IMG/VR virus record: IMGVR_UViG_3300022752_000016
Reading direction: 5' to 3' (one strand)
Length of the DNA stretch: 64,000 nucleotides
Source of the DNA: a virus
Lineage: Duplodnaviria > Caudoviricetes
The position numbers and the translations under genes were made by a program. Below are positions 3,299 to 29,681 of the stretch, piece after piece. The notes beneath the pieces are model-generated. The model saw only the letters and a list, made by a program, of their open reading frames with translations, was not told the DNA's origin and searched no databases. Position 1 is the first letter of the stretch; each line of letters begins with the position of its first letter.

Positions 3299-3306
3299 TA
3301 TAAATA
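3299..3306 (+). promoter_or_regulatory. Late promoter TATAAATA heading the glycosylation island
   Basis: Perfect T4 late consensus, followed by SD AGGAG and ATG 3325. Confidence 0.65.
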
Positions 3307-19727: not shown

Positions 19728-22700
19728 ATGATTAGAGATGTTTTTTATTATGGCAAGAAGCCTAACATTCATCCAAGAGAAAGATTTGCTAAAAACCTTG
19801 AAGAAGCAAGAGAGTTATCAAATACAGAGCATTTTTGGATAATAAATGAATTTTGTGATTATAAAAATTTTGATTGGGATTTCGATTACGAATTTTTACC
19901 AGACGAGGATGTATGGGCGCAGGATCATATAAATATATGGCCAAGTTTATATCAAAAAGATAGTGGAACATGGTTAGTTCCAAATAATAATAGTTTAGTG
20001 AGAATTTACAGAAATGATGTACAACCTGTAGATAGAAAAATAATTAAAGATAATTGGATTATTTATTCACAAATAGACAGTAAAAAATTTGATTTAAAAT
20101 GGCATCCTGATCCACTTGATCCGCCCTTTATTTATGTATGGGGGAATAAATTTATACCAGCAGAACTGCAACCTACAATAGAATATTATACACCTAGTGC
20201 TGTTGAACGAAAATACATGGGTGAAGTTGAGGTATTACCACAAATGGAACGTTGGGTAATGGTTCAAGATATAACTGAGGATTTTGATTTAACTTGGAGA
20301 CCTGATCCAAGAGAACCTCCGTACATTTACGTTTGGGGAAACAAATATATACCTGGAGAGTTACAATCTACAATTGAATATCATACTCCTAATGCAATCA
20401 ATAAAAAATATATGGGTAATGCACCTGTTTTACCTGATAAAAATTGGAAAATTATACAGGAAATTGATAAAACTAAATTTGATTTATCTTGGAGACCTGA
20501 TCCACGTGAACCTCCATACATTTATACTTGGGGAAATAAGTTTATTCCTGCTGAAATAATGCCTACAATTCAATACTTATGTCCAAACGCTACTGAACAT
20601 AAGTACATGCAAGAACCATTAGAGGTATTACCTGAATATGAAAAATGGGTAGAAGTACAGGCTATCGATAAAACTAAATTTGATTTATCTTGGAGACCTG
20701 ATCCACGTGAACCTCCATATATTTACGTTTGGGGAAACAAATATATACCTGGTGAATTATTACCTACATTGCAATATAATTGTATAGGAGCAAAAGAATA
20801 CAAATATATGGGTGATGTTGAGGTTATTCCAGAACACGAAAAATGGGTAGAAGTACAGGCTATCGACAAAACAAAATTTGATTTATCTTGGAGACCTGAT
20901 CCACGTGAACCTCCATACATTTATACTTGGGGAAATAAATATATACCTGGTGAATTAATGCCAACTTTAGAATATAGATGTATTGGAGCAACAGAACGCA
21001 AATATATGGGTGATGTTGAGGTTATTCCAGAACACGAAAAATGGGTCGAAATTCAACTAATTGATAAGACAACATTTGACATGACATGGAGACCTGATCC
21101 AAGAGAACCTCCATATATTTACGTTTGGGGGAATAAGTTTATTCCTGCAGAATTAATGTCAACTTTAGAATATAGATGTATTGGAGCAAAAGAATACAAA
21201 TATATGGGTGATGTTGAGGTTATTCCAGAACACGATAAATGGGTCGAAGTGCAGTTAATTGATAAGACAAAATTTGACATGACATGGAGACCTGATCCAA
21301 GAGAACCTCCATATATTTACGTTTGGGGGAATAAGTTTATTCCTGCAGAATTAATGCCAACTTTAGAATATAGATGTATTGGAGCCACTGAGCGAAAATA
21401 TATGGGAAATATTGATGTATTGCCTGAGTTTAATAGATGGGTCGAAGTTCAAACTATTGATAAGACTAAATTTGATATGACATGGAGACCTGATCCAAGA
21501 GAACCACCTTATATCTATGTATGGGGAAACAAATATATACCAGGCGAATTAAAATCAACAATTGAATACCATACCCCTAATAGTACTGAACGTAAGTATA
21601 TGGGAGATGTTGATGTTTTACCAGAAACAGAACGTTGGAATATTGTTCAAAAACCTAAGGATTTTGATTTAACATGGAGACCTGACCCAAAAGAACCACC
21701 ATACATTTATGTATGGGGCAATAAATATATACCTGGGGAGATACAATCTACAATAGAATATCATACACCTGACGCTCAAGAAATAAAATATATGGGTGAC
21801 ATAGAAGTTGTACCATATTATGAACATTGGAATATTGTGCAAGAAGTCGGTGATGATTTTGATCTTTGTTGGAGACCTGATCCAAGAGAACCACCATACA
21901 TTTATGTATGGGGGAACAACTATATACCTGGCGAGGTTAAAGCTACAATTGAATATCATACACCTAATAGTATTGAACGCAAGTATATGGGTATTGCCAG
22001 TGTTAAACCTGACAAAAATTGGAAAATTACACAGGATATTGATATTGAAAAATTTGATTTATGTTGGAGACCTGATCCTAGGGAGCCTGCATACATTTAT
22101 ACTTGGGGTAATAAGTATGTAAGTGCTGAACTAGTACCAACCATTGAATATTATACTCCTAACGCCACTGAACGTAAGTATATGGGTGAAGTAGACGTTA
22201 TTCCTGAATTTGATCGTTGGGTAGAAGTACAACCAATTGACAAATCAACATTTGATATGACATGGAGACCTGATCCAAGAGAACCACCATACATTTATGT
22301 ATGGGGTAATAAACATATTCCCGCCGAACTAAAACCCACGCTAGAATATTATACTCCAAACGCAACAGATAGAAAATATATGGGTAATGTTGAAGTTTTA
22401 CCAATAAACGAAAATTGGAAAATTACCCAAGAAGCTATAAACTTTGATTACACATGGAGACCGGACCCAAGAGAACCTGATTATATCTATGTATGGGGTA
22501 ACAAGTATATACCTGGCGAGTTAAAACCTACAATTGAATACATTTGTCCTAACGCTATTGAAAAAAAGTATATGGGGAATGTTGAAGTAGCCTCTGAATG
22601 GGACAAATATAGAATACTGATCCCTGTTGATAAGAATAGTTTTGATTTTAGTTGGAGACCTGATCCAAGAGAGCCTCCCTATATTTACGTTTGGGGCAAT

Positions 22701-25556
22701 CAAACTAATAGTGCCACTATAGAACCTACGATAGAATATCATTGCACAGGTGCTGTTGAACGCAAATACATGGTTGACAGAGTAGCTACAACGTTACCAG
22801 ATATTGAAAAATTTAAAATTTTAATTTCAGTAAAAGATTTTGATTTTAGTTGGAGACCAGATCCTCATAGTCCTCCTTATATCTACGTGTTTGGTAACCA
22901 ATGGCATGATGCAATGACTGAACCTACAGTAGAATATCATGTACCTGGTGCGAAAGAAAAAAAATATATAACAGATATTATAGCGAAGGTAAGTCCTACA
23001 CAGGAAAATTGGAAAACACTTATCCCTGTTGTAGATTTTGATTATAGCTGGAGGCCTAACCCACACAGTACTCCATACATTTATGTATTTGGAAATCAAT
23101 GGAATCCTATTGAATTAGAGCATACAGTTGAATACCATACACCTGGGGCAAAAGACTACAAATATATAACAGATATTGTAGCAAATCTTAAACCAACTAA
23201 CACTGAAAAACATTGGAAAAGGTTGTTACCTGTTGAAAGTTTTGATTATAGTTGGAAACCTGATCCAAGAGAACCTGCATTAATATATGTATTTGGAAAT
23301 AAATGGAATGATTCTAAGACTGAGCCTACTATTGAATATCATTGTGAAGGTGCTACAGAACGAAAATACTTAGATTTTCCTGTAGCTAAACCCACAGTTG
23401 AATTTAAATATTGGTCCATATCAAATAATTACGATCTAGAATCATTTGATTTTAGTTGGAGACCTAATCCGCATAGTCCACCACAAATTTATCAATGGGA
23501 AAATAATGGTCCAAGATATAATGTACCAGGTGCTACAGACGTTGTATTAATGAAAAGAATTGATACTGACTATGCACCGAAAATTAATAAATATTTTATT
23601 AAAACTAACCTTACCGATTTGATTAGTGAACATCCAAATGAAGTATTTTGGGCTTTAAATCCTGATCTAAATTATGATAAGTTTGACTTTACATGGAAGC
23701 CTAATAAAGAAAATTTTACACACATAAATGTTTTTGGTAATGAATATAGTAAAAATACCCACACATATTATATAAACGGGCCAATGTATAACTTGGGATA
23801 TAGGCAATATAATTATATAAATAATCAAAAATTTAGTGGGGATACAAACCTTTCAATGTTTTTTATTGATAGGGGTAATGATTATAGTCAAAAAAGATTC
23901 GATGCACTTAAAACAAAGTACCCACAATTACAAAAAACAAGATTTCTAAATTCTTGGGTAGATACTATTAATCGTTGCACTCAAAAATCTTATACAAAGT
24001 TCCTTTGGGTTTTAAGTAGCGAATTAGATTATAGTGAATTTGAGTTTGACTTTTATCCTAGTCCATGGCAAGAAAAAATGGTACATGTGTTTGGTACACA
24101 ATGGAGTCATTGGGGTAATACATACCTAATAAACAAGGAAACATTTGCAAATGATACTAAGTATATAAAAATTATTGAACATTTGTCATGTTTAAATTTT
24201 GTCAAAACTAAACGTGCAAAAGCTGTGGACATTATTTATGATATTGTCTATATTGACCACAAAAATACAAAAGTGGATAGTAATAAATTTAAATATGTGA
24301 TTGAGTATGAGGATAATTATTATAAAACTTTTAAAAAATTAATTGATGTTTTACCTAAAAAGAAAGAGCATTATATTTGGATAATAAGTTCAATCTGTGA
24401 TTATACAAACTTTAATTTTACTTACATTTGTGACCCATTTGCTAAAGAACAATTACACGTTTTTCCAAGCGATAAACAAAAATATGGTGACACATTTTTT
24501 GTAGACGTTAATAATTTACGTGAACAAATTGAAAATATTGAAAAACTTAAAAATTTTACAAAAATAAATTTTAATAATCATCAAACAGTAAAAAGATTAG
24601 ATTGTCCTAAATTTGTAATAGAGGATGATACTTTTGTAAATTCAATTAATGTTGAATTTAATTTTCCCTATGCAAATTTTGTAACGGTAGATAATTGTAC
24701 ATTAAATGTTGTGGACGATGATCCAATCAATTTGTGGGAAGAAGAAACAAAAAATATTATAGTGCAAAGTACAGGTAATACAAATATTATTATACCCAAA
24801 GAAGTAAAGAAATATGTAAAAAAAGAATTGTATGATTATCCTTATATCACTAAACGTGATAAATTACAATCAAGTTTTCCATTAGATATTGTTTTTTTAA
24901 GTAATGGTGAAAAAAATGCTGATGCAAACTATGAACATCTATTATCTGTAATAAAAAATAAACCAAATAGAGTAATAAGAGTTGATGGTATTAATGGTAG
25001 AAAAAATGCAAATTACGCAGTTGCAGATATTAGTAATACTCCTTGGATGTTTGTAGTATTTGCAAAGTTAAAAGTAAAAGAAAACTTTGATTGGGATTGG
25101 CAACCTGATAGAATGCAATTACCAAAACATTATATTTTTTATGCTAGGAATCCTGTTAATGGTTTGTTTTACGGACACCAAGCAATGATAGCATGGAATA
25201 AAAATATAGTTTTACAAACACAAGGAGTAGACTTAGATTTTACAATGGAAGGTAACCATGAAGTTGTTAAGATAGATAGCGGAACACCTTATTATAATAC
25301 AGATGAATATAGCACATGGAGGACTGCTTTTAGAGAGGTTATAAAATTGAAGTATTACAACAATAAAGAAAGTCAGCATCGTTTAAAAGTATGGTCAAGT
25401 ATAGCAGAAGGTGATTTTGCCCAATTTAGTTTACAAGGAGCAAAACATGCTATAGATTACTTTAATGCGGTTGATGGTAATATTGATAAATTAAAATTAA
25501 GTTACGAATGGGCTTGGTGTAAAGAATATTTTCTTAAAAAGTATGATAGAATTTAA
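19728..25556 (+). CDS. 1942-aa tandem-repeat protein with C-terminal glycosyltransferase-like domain
   Basis: 18 clear ~60-aa repeats (FDxxWRPDPREPPYIYVWGN...) plus degenerate copies; C-terminal DIVFLSNGE...RVDGING...WRTAFREVIKL domain. Confidence 0.8.
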   Translation: MIRDVFYYGKKPNIHPRERFAKNLEEARELSNTEHFWIINEFCDYKNFDWDFDYEFLPDEDVWAQDHINIWPSLYQKDSGTWLVPNNNSLVRIYRNDVQPVDRKIIKDNWIIYSQIDSKKFDLKWHPDPLDPPFIYVWGNKFIPAELQPTIEYYTPSAVERKYMGEVEVLPQMERWVMVQDITEDFDLTWRPDPREPPYIYVWGNKYIPGELQSTIEYHTPNAINKKYMGNAPVLPDKNWKIIQEIDKTKFDLSWRPDPREPPYIYTWGNKFIPAEIMPTIQYLCPNATEHKYMQEPLEVLPEYEKWVEVQAIDKTKFDLSWRPDPREPPYIYVWGNKYIPGELLPTLQYNCIGAKEYKYMGDVEVIPEHEKWVEVQAIDKTKFDLSWRPDPREPPYIYTWGNKYIPGELMPTLEYRCIGATERKYMGDVEVIPEHEKWVEIQLIDKTTFDMTWRPDPREPPYIYVWGNKFIPAELMSTLEYRCIGAKEYKYMGDVEVIPEHDKWVEVQLIDKTKFDMTWRPDPREPPYIYVWGNKFIPAELMPTLEYRCIGATERKYMGNIDVLPEFNRWVEVQTIDKTKFDMTWRPDPREPPYIYVWGNKYIPGELKSTIEYHTPNSTERKYMGDVDVLPETERWNIVQKPKDFDLTWRPDPKEPPYIYVWGNKYIPGEIQSTIEYHTPDAQEIKYMGDIEVVPYYEHWNIVQEVGDDFDLCWRPDPREPPYIYVWGNNYIPGEVKATIEYHTPNSIERKYMGIASVKPDKNWKITQDIDIEKFDLCWRPDPREPAYIYTWGNKYVSAELVPTIEYYTPNATERKYMGEVDVIPEFDRWVEVQPIDKSTFDMTWRPDPREPPYIYVWGNKHIPAELKPTLEYYTPNATDRKYMGNVEVLPINENWKITQEAINFDYTWRPDPREPDYIYVWGNKYIPGELKPTIEYICPNAIEKKYMGNVEVASEWDKYRILIPVDKNSFDFSWRPDPREPPYIYVWGNQTNSATIEPTIEYHCTGAVERKYMVDRVATTLPDIEKFKILISVKDFDFSWRPDPHSPPYIYVFGNQWHDAMTEPTVEYHVPGAKEKKYITDIIAKVSPTQENWKTLIPVVDFDYSWRPNPHSTPYIYVFGNQWNPIELEHTVEYHTPGAKDYKYITDIVANLKPTNTEKHWKRLLPVESFDYSWKPDPREPALIYVFGNKWNDSKTEPTIEYHCEGATERKYLDFPVAKPTVEFKYWSISNNYDLESFDFSWRPNPHSPPQIYQWENNGPRYNVPGATDVVLMKRIDTDYAPKINKYFIKTNLTDLISEHPNEVFWALNPDLNYDKFDFTWKPNKENFTHINVFGNEYSKNTHTYYINGPMYNLGYRQYNYINNQKFSGDTNLSMFFIDRGNDYSQKRFDALKTKYPQLQKTRFLNSWVDTINRCTQKSYTKFLWVLSSELDYSEFEFDFYPSPWQEKMVHVFGTQWSHWGNTYLINKETFANDTKYIKIIEHLSCLNFVKTKRAKAVDIIYDIVYIDHKNTKVDSNKFKYVIEYEDNYYKTFKKLIDVLPKKKEHYIWIISSICDYTNFNFTYICDPFAKEQLHVFPSDKQKYGDTFFVDVNNLREQIENIEKLKNFTKINFNNHQTVKRLDCPKFVIEDDTFVNSINVEFNFPYANFVTVDNCTLNVVDDDPINLWEEETKNIIVQSTGNTNIIIPKEVKKYVKKELYDYPYITKRDKLQSSFPLDIVFLSNGEKNADANYEHLLSVIKNKPNRVIRVDGINGRKNANYAVADISNTPWMFVVFAKLKVKENFDWDWQPDRMQLPKHYIFYARNPVNGLFYGHQAMIAWNKNIVLQTQGVDLDFTMEGNHEVVKIDSGTPYYNTDEYSTWRTAFREVIKLKYYNNKESQHRLKVWSSIAEGDFAQFSLQGAKHAIDYFNAVDGNIDKLKLSYEWAWCKEYFLKKYDRI
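20080..23520 (+). repeat. Intragenic tandem array of ~180-nt units (tggagacctgatcca core)
   Basis: Near-identical DNA units, most similar between ~20480 and 21550. Confidence 0.9.
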
Positions 25557-25561
25557 AAAAT

Positions 25562-25696
25562 ATGTTATTACTTTTTTCATCTCATTTAAATCATTCTATT
25601 TTACAAAATTTATCACAGGAAGAAAGATTTGTAGTTGCTTTTAATTTTTTTATGAAGGGAAATATAGGTACTAATGAATGGATGTTAAAACTATAA
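25562..25696 (+). pseudogene. C-terminal remnant of a 2OG-Fe(II) oxygenase-like gene
   Basis: MLLLFSSHLNHSILQNLSQEERFVVAFNFFMKG resembles the distal H...R..hFN strand region; in-frame stops at 25544-25549 remove the N-terminal part. Confidence 0.55.
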
Positions 25697-25699
25697 ATA
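25692..25699 (+). promoter_or_regulatory. Late promoter TATAAATA in front of tmRNA acceptor piece
   Basis: Perfect consensus just upstream of the acceptor piece. Confidence 0.65.
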
Positions 25700-25704
25700 A
25701 AGAA

Positions 25705-25774
25705 TAAAGAATTGTTGTATGAAGTTGAAGGAAAAGTGCTGCGGACGCGGGTTCGACTCCCGCCTGGTCCACCA
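25705..25774 (+). ncRNA. ssrA: tmRNA acceptor piece of a circularly permuted (two-piece) ssrA
   Basis: GGAC-GCGGG-TTCGACT-CCCGC T-arm, CTGGTCC-A-CCA end pairing with GGGCCAG at 26001 including G3-U70; TGTTGT (25713) pairs with ACAACA (26042); 5' end approximate. Confidence 0.9.
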
Positions 25775-25813
25775 TAAGGAAATATCCATAAGGAAATATC
25801 CATAAGGAAATAT
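25772..25813 (+). repeat. Three perfect copies of CCATAAGGAAATAT (14 nt)
   Basis: 25772-85, 25786-99, 25800-13; first copy begins at the tmRNA CCA, last ends at ATG 25814. Confidence 0.95.
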
Positions 25814-25999
25814 ATGAGAGTTACAAACACAGAATCAATTCAACTTACACCTAAAGATGGTAAATGGTATGCTATGCCAAATGACCAATACATTAGATGG
25901 AATTTTGATGAGAGAATTTGGGATTATATGATCACAAAAGAAGGGGACACAAAGCCTAGATTTTGGGATCAATTACCGGATGGTACGGTTTCCTTATGA
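25814..25999 (+). CDS. 61-aa Trp-rich protein inside the tmRNA intervening segment
   Basis: SD AAGGA 5 nt upstream; fills the intervening segment; TGA ends 1 nt before the tmRNA 5' G. Confidence 0.65.
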   Translation: MRVTNTESIQLTPKDGKWYAMPNDQYIRWNFDERIWDYMITKEGDTKPRFWDQLPDGTVSL

Positions 26000-26000
26000 T

Positions 26001-26170
26001 GGGCCAGACATGGTTTCGACGGGGTAAAGAGTACGGATATGGACAACACGGTAGGCGAAGACCGCAAATCTAGCAAAGCAAATAGACGCAAATGACGACT
26101 ATTTTTATCAGGATCTCAAGCTAGCCGCTTGAGCCTGACGGGGTAGGAAAGACCTTGTAACCAAACAAAC
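26001..26170 (+). ncRNA. ssrA: tmRNA coding piece; tag ANDDYFYQDLKLAA* (26088-26132)
   Basis: GGGCCAGACATGGTTTCGACGGGG 5' end, AAATAGAC-GCA resume context, LAA-stop tag, stop codon in CTCAAGC/GCTTGAG hairpin; 3' end approximate. Confidence 0.9.
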
Positions 26171-26171
26171 C

Positions 26172-26193
26172 TAGGCTCTACGGAGCCTATTTT
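26172..26193 (+). terminator. Rho-independent terminator after tmRNA
   Basis: TAGGCTC-TACG-GAGCCTA-TTTT. Confidence 0.75.
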
Positions 26194-26328
26194 ACCCAAT
26201 ATCTATAGACATTGCGTAAAAAAGTGTTATAGTTTGCACTAATACTTTAATTAATTAGGTTAGATTATATGCACTAAATATTAATCTACACCTGATTTTT
26301 ATCAGGTATTATTTTATAAGGAACTAGA

Positions 26329-27342
26329 ATGAAAAAACTTTTATTAGCGTCACTTATTGCAGGTGCTACATCAGTTGCAGTTGCACAAACAACTGTATAT
26401 GGTTTGGCTGATGCATATTATGGACATCAAACAAATGCAAAAAATAGCAATCAAGTAAATGCTGGTGGTATGACAACTAGTTACATTGGTATCAGTGCAT
26501 CTGAAAAAATTGGCGATCTACAAGCTAGAGCAGTATTAGAGACATTTTTGCGTCCTGATACCGCACAACAAGGTCGTTTTAATAATGATACTTTTTATGC
26601 AAGAAACGCATATGTTGCACTATCATCTAAAGCAGGTGAAGTACAACTTGGTCGTGTAACTACACCATACTTTATCTCAACAATTGCATTTAATGCATTA
26701 GGTGATAGCTTTGTATTCAGTCCAACAGTAACATCAAGGGTTGGAGTTAATAACTTTAATCTTGGTGGTGGTGGAAGTGATACAGGATGGAATAACTCAG
26801 TTTTAGTAAAAACTAGTATGGCTGGTTTAGCACTTACAGGTGTCTATAGTGCAGGAGTTACTGATGATAGCAACGCAAAATTATCAGGTAAAAGCGTTGG
26901 CGCCATGTACTTTCAAGGTCCAATTGGTTTAACTGCAACTTGGCAAGACGTAGAGCAAGGCGCAGGTAAAGCAAGTATGTCATCAACAATCGTTGGTGCA
27001 AGTTATGATCTTAAAGTAGCAAAGGTGTTTGCTCAACATGAGACTGTTAAAAACAGCGATAATGTAACAAAAGAAGATAGAGGTTATACAGTAGGCGCAA
27101 CAATGCCAATGGGTAAAAATACTCTAATGGCAAGCTATGCAAAGAAAGACCATGATTTCACAAATGGTAGAACTGCTGAAACAGCAAGCTGGGCAGTAGG
27201 TGTAAGCCATGCACTAAGCAAGCGTACTGATTTATATGCTGCTGTACGTGATACAAATTATACTAATGACGGTTTAAATAGAACAAATGCAAACTTCGTC
27301 GATACCCGTGTAACAGGTGTAGGCGTACGTCATCGTTTTTAA
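26329..27342 (+). CDS. Gram-negative general porin (Betaproteobacteria-like)
   Basis: Signal peptide, TTVYGLADA N-terminus, YALSKRT-like HALSKRTDLYAA, C-terminal GVRHRF with terminal Phe. Confidence 0.88.
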   Translation: MKKLLLASLIAGATSVAVAQTTVYGLADAYYGHQTNAKNSNQVNAGGMTTSYIGISASEKIGDLQARAVLETFLRPDTAQQGRFNNDTFYARNAYVALSSKAGEVQLGRVTTPYFISTIAFNALGDSFVFSPTVTSRVGVNNFNLGGGGSDTGWNNSVLVKTSMAGLALTGVYSAGVTDDSNAKLSGKSVGAMYFQGPIGLTATWQDVEQGAGKASMSSTIVGASYDLKVAKVFAQHETVKNSDNVTKEDRGYTVGATMPMGKNTLMASYAKKDHDFTNGRTAETASWAVGVSHALSKRTDLYAAVRDTNYTNDGLNRTNANFVDTRVTGVGVRHRF

Positions 27343-27584: not shown

Positions 27585-29681
27585 ATGGACATTAAAGAAC
27601 TACACTCATTTAGATTAAGTGACGCAGTAAAATTTCAGGATAAACTTAACCCAAAATTATTCTTGGGAAACCGTTTAGATCCTGCTGTAAAAAATCAATT
27701 AATTACAATTGCTAAAGATTTTCTTACAGAATTAGGGATAGGTGATGTAAAAGTTAAAGATATAACAATATCAGGTAGCAATGCAGCATTTACTTATACA
27801 CCACATAGCGATTTAGACTTACACATAGTTGTTGATTATAATCAATTTTCCAATGATAGCGTTTACAAAGAATTGTTTAACGCTAAGAAAAATTTATACA
27901 ACGATAGTCATAACATTACAATACGTGGTATTCCAGTAGAAGTATATATGGAAGATAGCAATGAACCAGTCATTAGTGTTGGTGAATACAGTATACTAAA
28001 GGATAAATGGAATCAAATTCCAACTAAACGTAGAGCAAACTTTGATCAAACTGCCACTAAGGCGAAGTATGGTAAACTAAATGATTTTATACTAAGAGCA
28101 TTAAAAGAAAAAAGTAGCAAAAAGATAGCCAAAGCATTAAAAATAATTAAGCGTTACAGACAAGCAGGGTTAGATAAAGGTGGTGAGTTTAGTCCTGAAA
28201 ATTTAGCATACAAAGCTTTACGTAGTCAAAAAGCAATTGAAAAACTATATAAGTTGCGTGATGAATTACATAGTAAAGAATTAAGTATTGAAAACATGTA
28301 TCAGGAACAAAAGCTAAATCGATTCGATGAAGACATTCCAGTTCAAAAAGGACCAGCGCGGTTAAAAAGACAAAGTGAATTAGAAAAGACACAAGACGAA
28401 TTAGGATCAGGTTTTTTTGGTACAGTTTATGATGAACCAAAAAGTAAAACTGGTGTAGGCACTGCTAGAAAAGTTTCTACATTTGATAGAGATGAGATGA
28501 CTGCTGACGGGTATTATGCTTATATCAATAAGATTATTGATCTTAAAAATGAAACTAATAATCCATACTTACCACAAGTATATGATGCTAAAGTTGTAAA
28601 ACCAAAGTCAGTAGGAAGTGAGCCATACTTTGAATTAGAACTTGAAAAATTAAGTAAATGGGAAGATTTAAGTGGTAATCAATTACGAGCAATACTAGAA
28701 AAAATGCTTGATGAAAGTTTTGAAAATGAAAAGAAACTACAAGATGTTTTGAAATTTTTAGGGCATTCAGGTGCGTCAGATACGAGTGACGAATGGTTAA
28801 TGTATGTAATTTTATATTTTATTAGGCTTACAATTAAAAATCCAAACTTTAGTTTAATGGGTATGAAAATTCGTGACCCACAACTTCTTGAAGTCACTGA
28901 TATGTTAAGATATCTGTCTAAGTCAGGGTATGGTATGGACTTACATGATCAAAATATCATGGTAAGAAATAGTAAATATGGCCCACAATTAGTTATTACA
29001 GATCCTTTAAGCTTTGGTGAAACTAGTCAGATACGAAAATTTAAACAAGGCAATATGAAAATGGATGTAAGGGGTGTAACTATACCACCTAATTACATAA
29101 TTTATGACATACATGATAAAGATAGACCAGTATTGCGTGGCTATGGCAGTTACGAAGAAATCTACCAACAATTCATAGAATTAAAGAATAAAAAACCATA
29201 TAATGATTATGAAATAGCTCCAATGAATCAAAAAGCTTCGGATGAAATGGATGCGAAGCAAGCAAGTGTAAAAGCAAAGTATAAAGAAAAACCACCTGCA
29301 AATCCTAAATATCAGCTTAAACCAAAATATACTTATGCTGTTTATGATAAAGATAAAACAAGCAATATGCTAATTGGTTATGTTAATGCTAACCATGATT
29401 CTGAAGCATTGGGATTGGCAAGAAAAAAATTCCCCGATGTAAAAAATATTAATGTGTTGCCTGATTTACTTGGTGATCCAAATGATAAATTTGCTGGTAT
29501 GTTAGAAGAAGCATTGGGTGAAAGTGCCTCGGGATATATCCCAAGCAAAAAACAAGCTAATGACCCAAGATTTAAGACTGCCTTGACAGTAGACATAAAA
29601 CCCGATAGCATCCAAAAGAATGCCAAAGCTTTTGGGTTTAAAGTAAAAAGGTCTGGAATCCCACCCCTGCTAAGACCCTAA
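27585..29681 (+). CDS. Pol-beta-family nucleotidyltransferase fused to a protein-kinase-like domain
   Basis: ISGSNAAFTYTPHSDLDLH (GS..DxD); LGSGFFGTVY, RKV, DLHDQNIMV, VITDP kinase motifs. Confidence 0.75.
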   Translation: MDIKELHSFRLSDAVKFQDKLNPKLFLGNRLDPAVKNQLITIAKDFLTELGIGDVKVKDITISGSNAAFTYTPHSDLDLHIVVDYNQFSNDSVYKELFNAKKNLYNDSHNITIRGIPVEVYMEDSNEPVISVGEYSILKDKWNQIPTKRRANFDQTATKAKYGKLNDFILRALKEKSSKKIAKALKIIKRYRQAGLDKGGEFSPENLAYKALRSQKAIEKLYKLRDELHSKELSIENMYQEQKLNRFDEDIPVQKGPARLKRQSELEKTQDELGSGFFGTVYDEPKSKTGVGTARKVSTFDRDEMTADGYYAYINKIIDLKNETNNPYLPQVYDAKVVKPKSVGSEPYFELELEKLSKWEDLSGNQLRAILEKMLDESFENEKKLQDVLKFLGHSGASDTSDEWLMYVILYFIRLTIKNPNFSLMGMKIRDPQLLEVTDMLRYLSKSGYGMDLHDQNIMVRNSKYGPQLVITDPLSFGETSQIRKFKQGNMKMDVRGVTIPPNYIIYDIHDKDRPVLRGYGSYEEIYQQFIELKNKKPYNDYEIAPMNQKASDEMDAKQASVKAKYKEKPPANPKYQLKPKYTYAVYDKDKTSNMLIGYVNANHDSEALGLARKKFPDVKNINVLPDLLGDPNDKFAGMLEEALGESASGYIPSKKQANDPRFKTALTVDIKPDSIQKNAKAFGFKVKRSGIPPLLRP

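Follow-up and report, generated by a model that had tools for sequence, protein, structure and literature searches.

The window analysed here, a 64-kb stretch of DNA from a 137-kb IMG/VR virus record (IMGVR_UViG_3300022752_000016) judged to be about 40% complete, contains a two-piece, i.e., circularly permuted, transfer-messenger RNA (tmRNA) gene. The intervening segment between the two pieces, called the spacer below, is filled by an open reading frame (ORF) of 61 codons, ORF61, which is a real gene under purifying selection as judged from its alleles and homologs. Comparison of related loci indicates that the spacer is a cassette slot closed by an RNA stem, that it carries a small protein gene as cargo, that different phages have different genes in it, and that these are swapped by recombination. 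A probability of about two-thirds is given to this reading. Intervening segments of permuted tmRNAs have been treated as disposable linkers, whereas the linker in the window is itself a selected protein gene. It would belong to a class of small phage genes that is hidden from gene callers and tmRNA annotators alike.

Identity and anatomy of the tmRNA gene

The two-piece tmRNA was the only gene called by ARAGORN in the window (25682-26223, 'tmRNA*'). The Rfam model tmRNA_permuted (RF04321) matched positions 25713-26132 over its full length (model positions 1-213) with 114.9 bits, which is above the curated gathering score of 47, and an E-value of 1e-21. In the alignment, the CCA end was separated from the 5' acceptor strand by a long insertion with exactly these borders, and the acceptor piece preceded both the 5' acceptor strand and the tag template. 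A phage-borne permuted tmRNA had been predicted from the DNA sequence alone, and a check with ARAGORN and Infernal-type permuted models had been proposed; both called a permuted tmRNA. The positions given in the original prediction held to the base, i.e., the CCA end at 25774, the first base of the coding piece (G1) at 26001, the 226-nt spacer, the ORF for 61 amino acids, and the stop codon 1 nt from the predicted RNase P site. The features are the following.

25692-25699 (+), TATAAATA motif resembling a T4 late promoter, 13 nt before the tmRNA model match begins
25713-25774 (+), acceptor piece, from the RF04321 alignment and the 3' tRNA domain of ARAGORN; the 5' end is the start of the model
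25747-25763 (+), T-arm, GCGGG/UUCGACU/CCCGC, canonical
25764-25770 (+), acceptor 3' strand CUGGUCC, from the sequence
25771-25774 (+), ACCA, i.e., the discriminator (A25771) and the CCA (25772-25774)
25772-25785, 25786-25799 and 25800-25813 (+), 14-nt unit CCAUAAGGAAAUAU, present three times in tandem, from the sequence
25775-26000 (+), spacer, 226 nt, not part of the mature tmRNA, from the ARAGORN domain borders
25775-25783 (+), UAAGGAAAU, which follows the CCA immediately and is the 5' strand of the closing helix
25814-25999 (+), ORF61, 61 codons, ATG at 25814, TGA at 25997-25999, followed by one U (26000) before G1
25988-25996 (+), GUUUCCUUA, 3' strand of the closing helix and at the same time the codons for the C-terminal V-S-L
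25997-26000 (+), UGAU tail, i.e., the stop codon and U(-1) before the predicted RNase P site
26001-26195 (+), coding piece with G1, tag ORF and 3' hairpin; its 3' end is deduced from the hairpin
26088-26132 (+), tag ORF, ANDDYFYQDLKLAA and a stop codon
26172-26189 (+), 3' hairpin, followed by UUUU, from the sequence

The acceptor stem comprises seven base pairs, which are formed by GGGCCAG (26001-26007) and CUGGUCC (25764-25770). G26003 is opposite U25768 and represents the G3.U70 pair, which together with the discriminator A gives the tmRNA its alanine identity. The pairing is preserved by a compensatory change in the related contig L007 (GGGCCCG/CGGGUCC). The tag starts with an alanine resume codon and ends with a hydrophobic degron of the ...LAA type and a stop codon, and variants of it (ANDDYFTQEFKLAA, ANDEVFALAA) are present in relatives. 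The 3' hairpin of the predicted terminator is present, but because it is followed by only four U residues, a terminator scan of the window did not list it on the plus strand.

A permissive, E-value-based Rfam scan of positions 25600-26300 revealed only tmRNA models, and no other family, intron, riboswitch or ribozyme was found in the spacer. With no ribozyme core in the Rfam results and no nuclease domain in ORF61, the spacer does not resemble a group I intron with a homing endonuclease. The model Beta_tmRNA scored 36.8 bits in the window, which is below its cut-off, and 87.8 bits in contig L011, and alpha_tmRNA scored 69.8 in contig L007. A second type of acceptor piece was observed in L007 (1132-1190) and in contig L004 (1-60), which has the non-canonical T-loop GGCAGUG in a CCGG stem and resembles the T-loop GGCAGUA of the Methylophilales phage Melnitz. 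The tmRNA genes with the GGCAGUG loop were missed by ARAGORN, and Rfam gave 79-115 bits for them.

Further proteins encoded in the window are the large terminase subunit TerL (phrog_36964, 2e-104), a UvsX-like recombinase, a T4-type single-stranded DNA-binding protein, thymidylate synthase (ThyA), and a CobS-like ATPase, and the DNA thus stems from a large phage. Its G+C content is about 30%, and contigs with the same ORF61 originated from freshwater, lake, and river metagenomes. By all these features the locus is a functional-looking two-piece tmRNA gene of a large freshwater phage. A match to SmpB (PF01668) was not found in the 137-kb record, about 40% of the genome, which has no bearing on the identity of the RNA. 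Presumably the phage tmRNA uses the SmpB of the host, as is assumed for other phage tmRNAs.

ORF61 is a gene under purifying selection

A word-indexed protein search with ORF61 retrieved only ORF61 itself, and a first scan with a protein pattern retrieved nothing. An exhaustive HMMER search of 1.84 billion representative sequences revealed six small homologs of 63-68 amino acids (E 2.5e-17 to 5e-4), and scans of metagenome and viral contigs extended the family, e.g., by members on L297 and L298. The members (61-68 amino acids) share the motif TPKDGKWY...Y[IL]xW[ND]...W..M...DG[TI] at significant HMMER E-values. Ten residues are invariant in seven family sequences, i.e., P13, K14, D15, W18, Y19, W29, W36, M39, D56 and G57, including three tryptophans.

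The closest homolog, P0002, is 58% identical to ORF61 and is present on three contigs, likewise in the spacer of a permuted tmRNA; it is designated allele B. Its host tmRNAs had Rfam scores of 117-120 bits and encode the tags ANDEVFALAA and ANDDYFTQDFKLAA. The junctions are the same as in the window, i.e., ...GGUCCACCA-UAAGGAAA... and ...UUAUGAU-GGGCCAG. A comparison of the codons of the two alleles revealed that 17 are identical, 18 differ only synonymously, and 26 have non-synonymous differences. The non-synonymous divergence (dN) is 0.32, while the synonymous divergence (dS) is saturated (maximum likelihood estimate 2.9). The allele in the same slot, the purifying selection and the homologs uphold the earlier claim that a protein gene resides in the spacer.

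AlphaFold2 with a shallow alignment produced a model with four beta strands (pLDDT 88, pTM 0.70), and the product is confidently predicted to be a small beta-fold protein. Significant matches were found neither in Pfam and PHROG nor in PDB, BFVD, AFDB and the ESM Atlas; in Pfam, there was no family for ORF61 at E <= 0.01 and none common to the seven homologs at E <= 10. ORF61 does not belong to the S23p family (PF05635) of ORFs in 23S rRNA intervening sequences, and the likeness to them is confined to the layout. Similarity to SmpB or a translation factor was not found by family and fold searches. Rows of the ESM Atlas that name Tad2-like proteins and DUF551 had a poor Atlas model behind them and were not reproduced with the AlphaFold2 model, and several long repeat proteins (TPR, choline-binding, PQQ, Ig) with HMMER E-values of about 1e-4 were rejected as compositional false positives.

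Apart from the embedded allele B, at least seven homologs occur on other phage contigs as ordinary small genes, located in arrays of small genes without any tmRNA. These free-standing homologs run on past the conserved DGT with ELFGVE-like tails, while the two embedded alleles end with DGTVSL and the stop codon. Their last codons form the 3' strand of an RNA helix (see below), and the C-terminus was thus adapted to the slot. A tree of nine members leaves it undecided whether the two embedded alleles are sisters, i.e., whether the gene was captured once or twice. The protein is best read as cargo that stems from a family of small phage proteins living mostly outside of tmRNA genes. The original prediction had also considered the ORF as a fossil of a tandem duplication, and this was rejected: neither of the tmRNA pieces resembles the spacer, and the ORF is a member of a separate family of small phage proteins. 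A blastn comparison of the spacer with the two pieces at word size 7 gave only chance matches of 7-11 nt.

Several observations were made on the free-standing family members. On L297 (880-1140), L299 (440-670) and L015 (1841-3194) they are part of arrays of small genes of 60-70 amino acids. On L299, and also on L300, the preceding ORF ends with the same ...FGVEE motif, which suggests that the neighbours are tandem paralogs. The homolog P0005 (L016 2331-3781; also on L017 and L018) begins 17 nt after two tandem tRNA genes with CUA anticodons (amber suppressors), and its TAG stop codon is in frame with the next ORF of 358 amino acids. This suggests that the phage reads TAG as a sense codon and makes a longer, fused protein.

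The spacer is exchanged as a whole cassette

Contigs that were found via the exact ORF61 protein share the amino acids by construction, but not necessarily the DNA. In spite of this, the spacer DNA of the window was identical to that of L007 at 198 of 198 positions, whereas the acceptor pieces were 80% and the coding pieces 82% identical. The same was found for L004, again with 198 of 198 identical spacer positions, and with 74% identity of the acceptor piece and 80% of the coding piece. L007 and L004 differ from the window also in the T-arm (GGCAGUG loop), the tags and the neighbouring genes. Also in the case of allele B the spacers of two contigs, L012 and L013, were identical (205/205), and their acceptor and coding pieces were 98% and 74% identical, respectively.

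The reverse situation was found on contig L054. It has the acceptor arm and the tag of the window and a nearly identical coding piece, but its spacer has only 70 nt, lacks an ORF and has a closing helix of its own. Metatranscriptome contigs of close relatives have 62 other letters at the place where the window has 214 nt of the spacer. Thus, one backbone occurs with occupied and with empty slots, and one cargo occurs on several backbones. The breakpoints of the exchange are located at the invariant sequences of the acceptor stem, and each spacer junction was found independently in several data sets. By these comparisons, tmRNA genes exchange their complete spacers through recombination at the acceptor-stem sequences, which would amount to a recombination-driven trade of small genes among phages through a universally conserved RNA gene.

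Positions 1-400 of L004 are a mosaic of an acceptor piece of the L007 type, the spacer of the window, and the start of a coding piece of the L012 type, with an A6.G mismatch in the acceptor stem. L004 is either a natural recombinant or an assembly chimera via the shared spacer.

A closing helix and a stop triplet are properties of the slot

The 11 positions that follow the CCA form pairs with the stretch from -15 to -5 relative to G1; depending on the position, the pair is present in 73-83 of the 83 phage spacers. The helix covaries, with up to six pair types per position, and slid registers pair far less. In the window, UAAGGAAAU and GUUUCCUUA were paired in the minimum free energy fold and in the centroid fold of the precursor, and the helix was stacked on the acceptor stem (z = -3.27). 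The covariation therefore makes the Shine-Dalgarno (SD) motif the 5' strand and the last codons the 3' strand of a processing helix. Several unrelated cargoes end with ...SL and the stop codon because their last codons are constrained by this helix.

The 14-nt unit CCAUAAGGAAAUAU is present in three copies in all contigs of the window type, and in one copy in L007, L004 and allele B. Copy 1 overlaps the CCA end and makes the closing helix, while copy 3 supplies the SD sequence AAGGA (25804-25808), which is unpaired in the predicted fold.

The four bases before G1 were UGAU in 58, UAAU in 21 and UGAC in 4 of the 83 phage spacers. A stop triplet (UGA or UAA) at positions -4 to -2 was found in 86 of 93 phage spacers, irrespective of the presence of an ORF, and in only 3 of 29 cellular spacers, in which UUAU is common. 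The distance of 1 nt between stop codon and RNase P site had been put forward as a feature of ORF61. Its position is correct, but because the triplet is also present in spacers without an ORF it is a property of the slot and not specific to ORF61. The triplet may be kept either for RNase P or as a stop codon.

Spacer genes are common in this tmRNA lineage

A survey of other phage ssrA spacers had been proposed as a further check. IMG/VR was scanned with the exact acceptor-arm pattern, which yielded 120 loci, and ARAGORN called 101 permuted tmRNAs, 96 of them unique. The median spacer length is 82 nt, and the longest spacer has 239 nt. Among the 89 unique spacers with 50 nt or more, 26 contain an ORF that covers at least 80% of the spacer, has its stop codon 1 nt before G1, and starts 6-15 nt after the CCA behind an SD motif. 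In 500 dinucleotide-preserving shuffles the number of such ORFs was 3.65 +/- 1.87, with a maximum of 11. A protein gene in the spacer is thus a general layout in this lineage of phage tmRNAs, and by this count about three in ten spacers hold one.

The cargo ORFs are mutually unrelated. They encode single-helix membrane peptides of 22-27 amino acids, a 37-amino-acid peptide in two diverged versions, and proteins of 39-75 amino acids. In the group of membrane peptides the numbers of variable columns at the three codon positions were 20/11/22.

Cellular genes served as a control. The RF04321 matches of Alphaproteobacteria were 181-343 nt long in 146 of 151 genomes (including the unpublished genome G042, which was used for no other result), compared to 420 nt in the window, and 29 alphaproteobacterial spacers had lengths of 5-62 nt, which leaves no room for an ORF. 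A scan of genome contigs with the acceptor-arm pattern found mostly tRNA-Ala genes of archaea and other bacteria, and only three permuted tmRNAs. One of the three, L259 3637-4064 (contig C126 of genome G001), is a permuted tmRNA of the phage type, and its 87-nt spacer encodes the membrane peptide MDDLSSLGIGVIVVLVVFALVLL. The contig of 7.6 kb has a G+C content of 39% and belongs to a metagenome-assembled genome of 2.8 Mb, which has another weak tmRNA match elsewhere; probably the contig is a phage or a misbinned piece.

A blastn search of the locus against 50,697 phage records gave no match, and an exact-pattern scan of viral contigs for the window-specific junction of acceptor and SD sequence found nothing. 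A related tmRNA gene matched only the conserved T-arm of the tmRNAs of Stenotrophomonas and Xanthomonas phages and of Bacillus phage G. The Stenotrophomonas phages (Marzo, Bhz51, Yut2, Yut3 and relatives) have genomes of about 160 kb, the match was the T-arm region, and the tmRNA is annotated in some of the records only.

RNA evidence

Three riverine metatranscriptome runs, each from a different study, yielded Logan contigs that contain the spacer with the ORF without mismatches. Their depth was 2-6, while the depth of the conserved acceptor arm was several hundred, summed over relatives. Some contigs span the junctions from the CCA to the spacer and from the spacer to G1 at low depth. Others stop at 25772-25774 and continue with an Illumina adapter; these have 1-5 mismatches or cover only 30 conserved nucleotides and may stem from relatives. 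The contigs fit a transcribed and processed locus, although assembled contigs show neither RNA ends nor strand nor translation.

Proposed mechanism and alternative explanations

One transcript would be the precursor of a stable RNA as well as an mRNA, with the ribosome-binding site and the stop codon inside an RNA-processing helix. The precursor would extend from the ATAAATA-type promoter to the 3' hairpin. In the nascent precursor the SD motif after the CCA would still be free, so that ribosomes could load as long as the 3' strand of the helix has not been made, and could translate ORF61 up to the UGA. Once this strand and GGGCCAG have been transcribed and the ribosomes have left, the closing helix and the acceptor stem would form. 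RNase P would cleave between U26000 and G26001, and the 3' end would be trimmed to the CCA at 25774. A U at position -1 is favoured by RNase P. The products would be the two tmRNA pieces and an excised spacer RNA with paired ends, and as the triplication of CCAUAAGGAAAUAU leaves one SD motif outside of the helix, this RNA could probably still be used as a message. The cargo protein would profit from a strongly transcribed and recombination-friendly site.

The original prediction had proposed that a mini-mRNA is released or that translation competes with folding of the acceptor stem. Both are plausible, and the location of the SD motif and the stop codon in or next to the closing helix fits both. 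The locus would be a natural system for the competition between translation and tRNA-type processing on one molecule. A more elaborate version is tentative and rather doubtful: the slot could be built so that translation and RNA maturation alternate, with the SD motif and the last codons in the closing helix and a stop triplet that is under selection 1 nt before the RNase P site, the protein would come mainly from the nascent precursor, and the excised message would be nearly a non-stop mRNA, the product of which could be tagged by its own tmRNA.

ORF61 is regarded as cargo and not as a partner in trans-translation because the slot holds unrelated genes, empty slots work, and most homologs are located elsewhere. 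Several points weigh against the cassette reading. ORF61 has no significant family or fold match, so a role in trans-translation may exist. The nearly universal stop triplet 1 nt before G1, even in spacers without an ORF, hints at a tie between translation and maturation that goes beyond pure cargo. Some combinations of flanks (L004 with its A6.G mismatch) may be assembly chimeras, and the metagenomic contigs are short. The RNA contigs over ORF61, with their depth of 2-6, span both junctions and could represent precursor RNA or carried-over DNA. Finally, the survey was drawn with one acceptor-arm pattern and represents one related lineage, not all phage tmRNAs.

The first alternative is a functional coupling, i.e., the spacer proteins would act together with the phage tmRNA, on SmpB, charging, rescue, or the fate of tagged proteins, and the layout would fix the proportion of protein to tmRNA. 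The obligatory co-transcription of both and the long life of the layout, as indicated by the saturated dS between the two alleles, are in line with this. The same is true for the stop triplet, which is frequent in phage and rare in cellular spacers: the cleaved message would end 1 nt past the stop codon, and work in trans-translation would predict that release factor and tmRNA-SmpB compete there. However, the cargoes of the slot are mutually unrelated, many related tmRNA genes (e.g., that of L054) have no ORF at all, the homologs of ORF61 are mostly free-standing and far from any tmRNA, and the searches found no resemblance of ORF61 to SmpB or a translation factor. This alternative is therefore considered unlikely, and the specific coupling of a protein to ribosome rescue, as originally proposed, was not supported in view of the unrelated cargoes and the homologs outside of tmRNA genes.

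Similarly unlikely is a selfish mobile cassette, in which a parasitic spacer with its ORF spreads via the acceptor stem as landing site without a benefit for the phage, a view that has been put forward for the intervening sequence in the 23S rRNA of Coxiella. The complete identity of the spacer DNA in backbones that are about 20% apart, seen for both alleles, would be explained, and so would occupied and empty slots on one backbone and the coincidence of the breakpoints with the acceptor stem. A protein of 61 amino acids that lacks a nuclease motif and is predicted to have a simple beta fold has no means of active mobility, though, and neither a ribozyme nor a transposase is present nearby. 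The purifying selection on the protein and its free-standing homologs speak for a benefit to phages, and passive phage recombination (a UvsX-like gene is present in the window) explains the pattern without selfishness.

It is very improbable that translation serves solely as a device for folding or processing, with ribosome passage delaying the acceptor stem or protecting the precursor and the peptide being irrelevant. The embedding of the SD motif and the stop codon in the closing helix and the many spacers that are filled by very short hydrophobic ORFs of 22-27 codons would agree with it. However, ten residues are invariant across homologs that are 25-58% identical, dN/dS is about 0.1, the fold is predicted confidently, and also the membrane peptides keep their sequence pattern, with the second codon position being the least variable. 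A chance open frame in a long non-coding intervening sequence, for which one could cite the missing database family and the identical copies that carry no substitution information, can practically be dismissed in view of the diverged allele and the at least seven homologs with conserved residues, the many synonymous differences, and the strong excess of spacer-filling ORFs over shuffles.

Comparison with known systems

Two-piece tmRNAs of phages have been published, i.e., 53 of 133 unique phage tmRNAs in one survey, and those of Melnitz and of pelagimyophages (PMC9004378). A search of the accessible literature found no description of a protein gene in a tmRNA intervening segment. In the largest tmRNA catalogue consulted, a database of 2025, the unusual contents named for spacers are a tRNA-Ala gene and a repetitive element, and no protein gene is mentioned (PMC11915505).

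Melnitz and pelagimyophages such as Mosig are aquatic T4-like myophages (PMC9004378). Like the window they have a permuted ssrA gene on a large aquatic phage genome, an alpha-type tag (ANDx...LAA), and a motif of the TATAAATA type in front of the gene, and likewise SmpB was not found to be encoded by the phage. The closing helix and the UGAU tail are also present in the spacer of Melnitz. The Melnitz paper describes a glutamine riboswitch in the 3' domain and is silent on a gene in the intervening segment (PMC9004378), and no coding sequence is annotated inside the tmRNA in the GenBank record (MZ577097). The Melnitz tmRNA (L296 5985-6437; MZ577097 45984-46436) has a 142-nt spacer with the SD motif GGAGAA and an unannotated open frame of 41 codons. 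Unlike ORF61 this frame is not in the frame of the terminal stop triplet, and it passes G1 and extends about 17 codons into the coding piece.

The cellular permuted tmRNAs of Caulobacter and other Alphaproteobacteria, some Betaproteobacteria and cyanobacteria (RF04321/RF01849-51; PMC11915505) have the same gene order, tRNA-like domain, G3.U70 pair and tag frame as the window, and their intervening sequence is also removed by tRNA-processing enzymes. They differ by their short spacers without an ORF (5-62 nt) and by the rarity of the stop triplet (3/29).

With regard to layout, the nearest analogue is the 23S rRNA intervening sequence with an S23p ORF of Coxiella burnetii and Leptospira, in which an ORF likewise lies in a segment that is closed by a stem and cut out of a stable-RNA precursor (PMC4990558). 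It is described as possibly selfish and horizontally moving, and S23p is apparently not synthesised in vivo (PMC4990558). The differences are the rRNA as host, excision by RNase III, and a single conserved protein family. In the lineage of the window, many unrelated ORFs occupy one slot, and the borders are of the tRNA-processing type.

In tRNA punctuation, which is known from mitochondrial transcripts and bacterial tRNA-mRNA co-transcripts, an RNase P cut at the 5' end of a tRNA-like structure defines the 3' end of a message just after its stop codon. In the window, unlike there, the tRNA-like structure is built from both flanks of the message, and the loop that is closed by the acceptor stem is the mRNA. 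Group I introns with homing endonuclease ORFs in tmRNA and tRNA genes (PMC11915505) also are mobile, ORF-bearing segments that are removed from a tmRNA precursor. In contrast to these, the segment in the window has no ribozyme found by Rfam and no endonuclease, is located between CCA and G1 and not in the T-loop, and the two halves of the RNA are not religated.

Candidate promoter and neighbouring genes

Over the entire window, the motif TATAAATA showed no enrichment (19 copies found, 18.4 expected). Its positions were biased: 8 of the 15 copies on the plus strand are intergenic, although intergenic DNA makes up 12% of the window, and these are located 1-30 nt before ORF starts. Similarly, 16 of 30 ATAAATA motifs on the plus strand are intergenic, compared to 3.6 expected. 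Intergenic gaps are few in the window, and the plus-strand motifs accumulate in them, 1-30 nt ahead of ORF starts, e.g., at 3299, 11254, 18227, 41207, 52224 and 58480. ATAAATA-type motifs are also present upstream of the tmRNA genes of L007, L012, L111 and Melnitz. It is plausible that TATAAATA/ATAAATA is a T4-late-type promoter of the phage; expression late in infection, as originally suggested, was based on the TATAAATA-type motif only and is unsupported.

Directly upstream of the tmRNA gene a protein of 1942 amino acids is encoded (19728-25556, +), which consists of about 18 tandem repeats of about 60 amino acids that are rich in Trp, Pro and Tyr (FD.SWRPDPREPPYIYVWGNKYIP...). Its Pfam matches were weak and non-significant only. 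The first gene downstream of the tmRNA (26329-27342, +) encodes a porin (Pfam Porin_4, E 1.3e-40) with an N-terminus resembling a signal peptide, which points to a Gram-negative host and allows no finer assignment. In contig L004 the position of the porin gene is occupied by a gene for a periplasmic solute-binding protein. The protein of 698 amino acids encoded further downstream (27585-29681, +) resembles phrog_36119 in its N-terminal part, with a weak nucleotidyltransferase-like match, and its middle part matches the PHROG family of T7-type protein kinases (phrog_15752, 5e-9).

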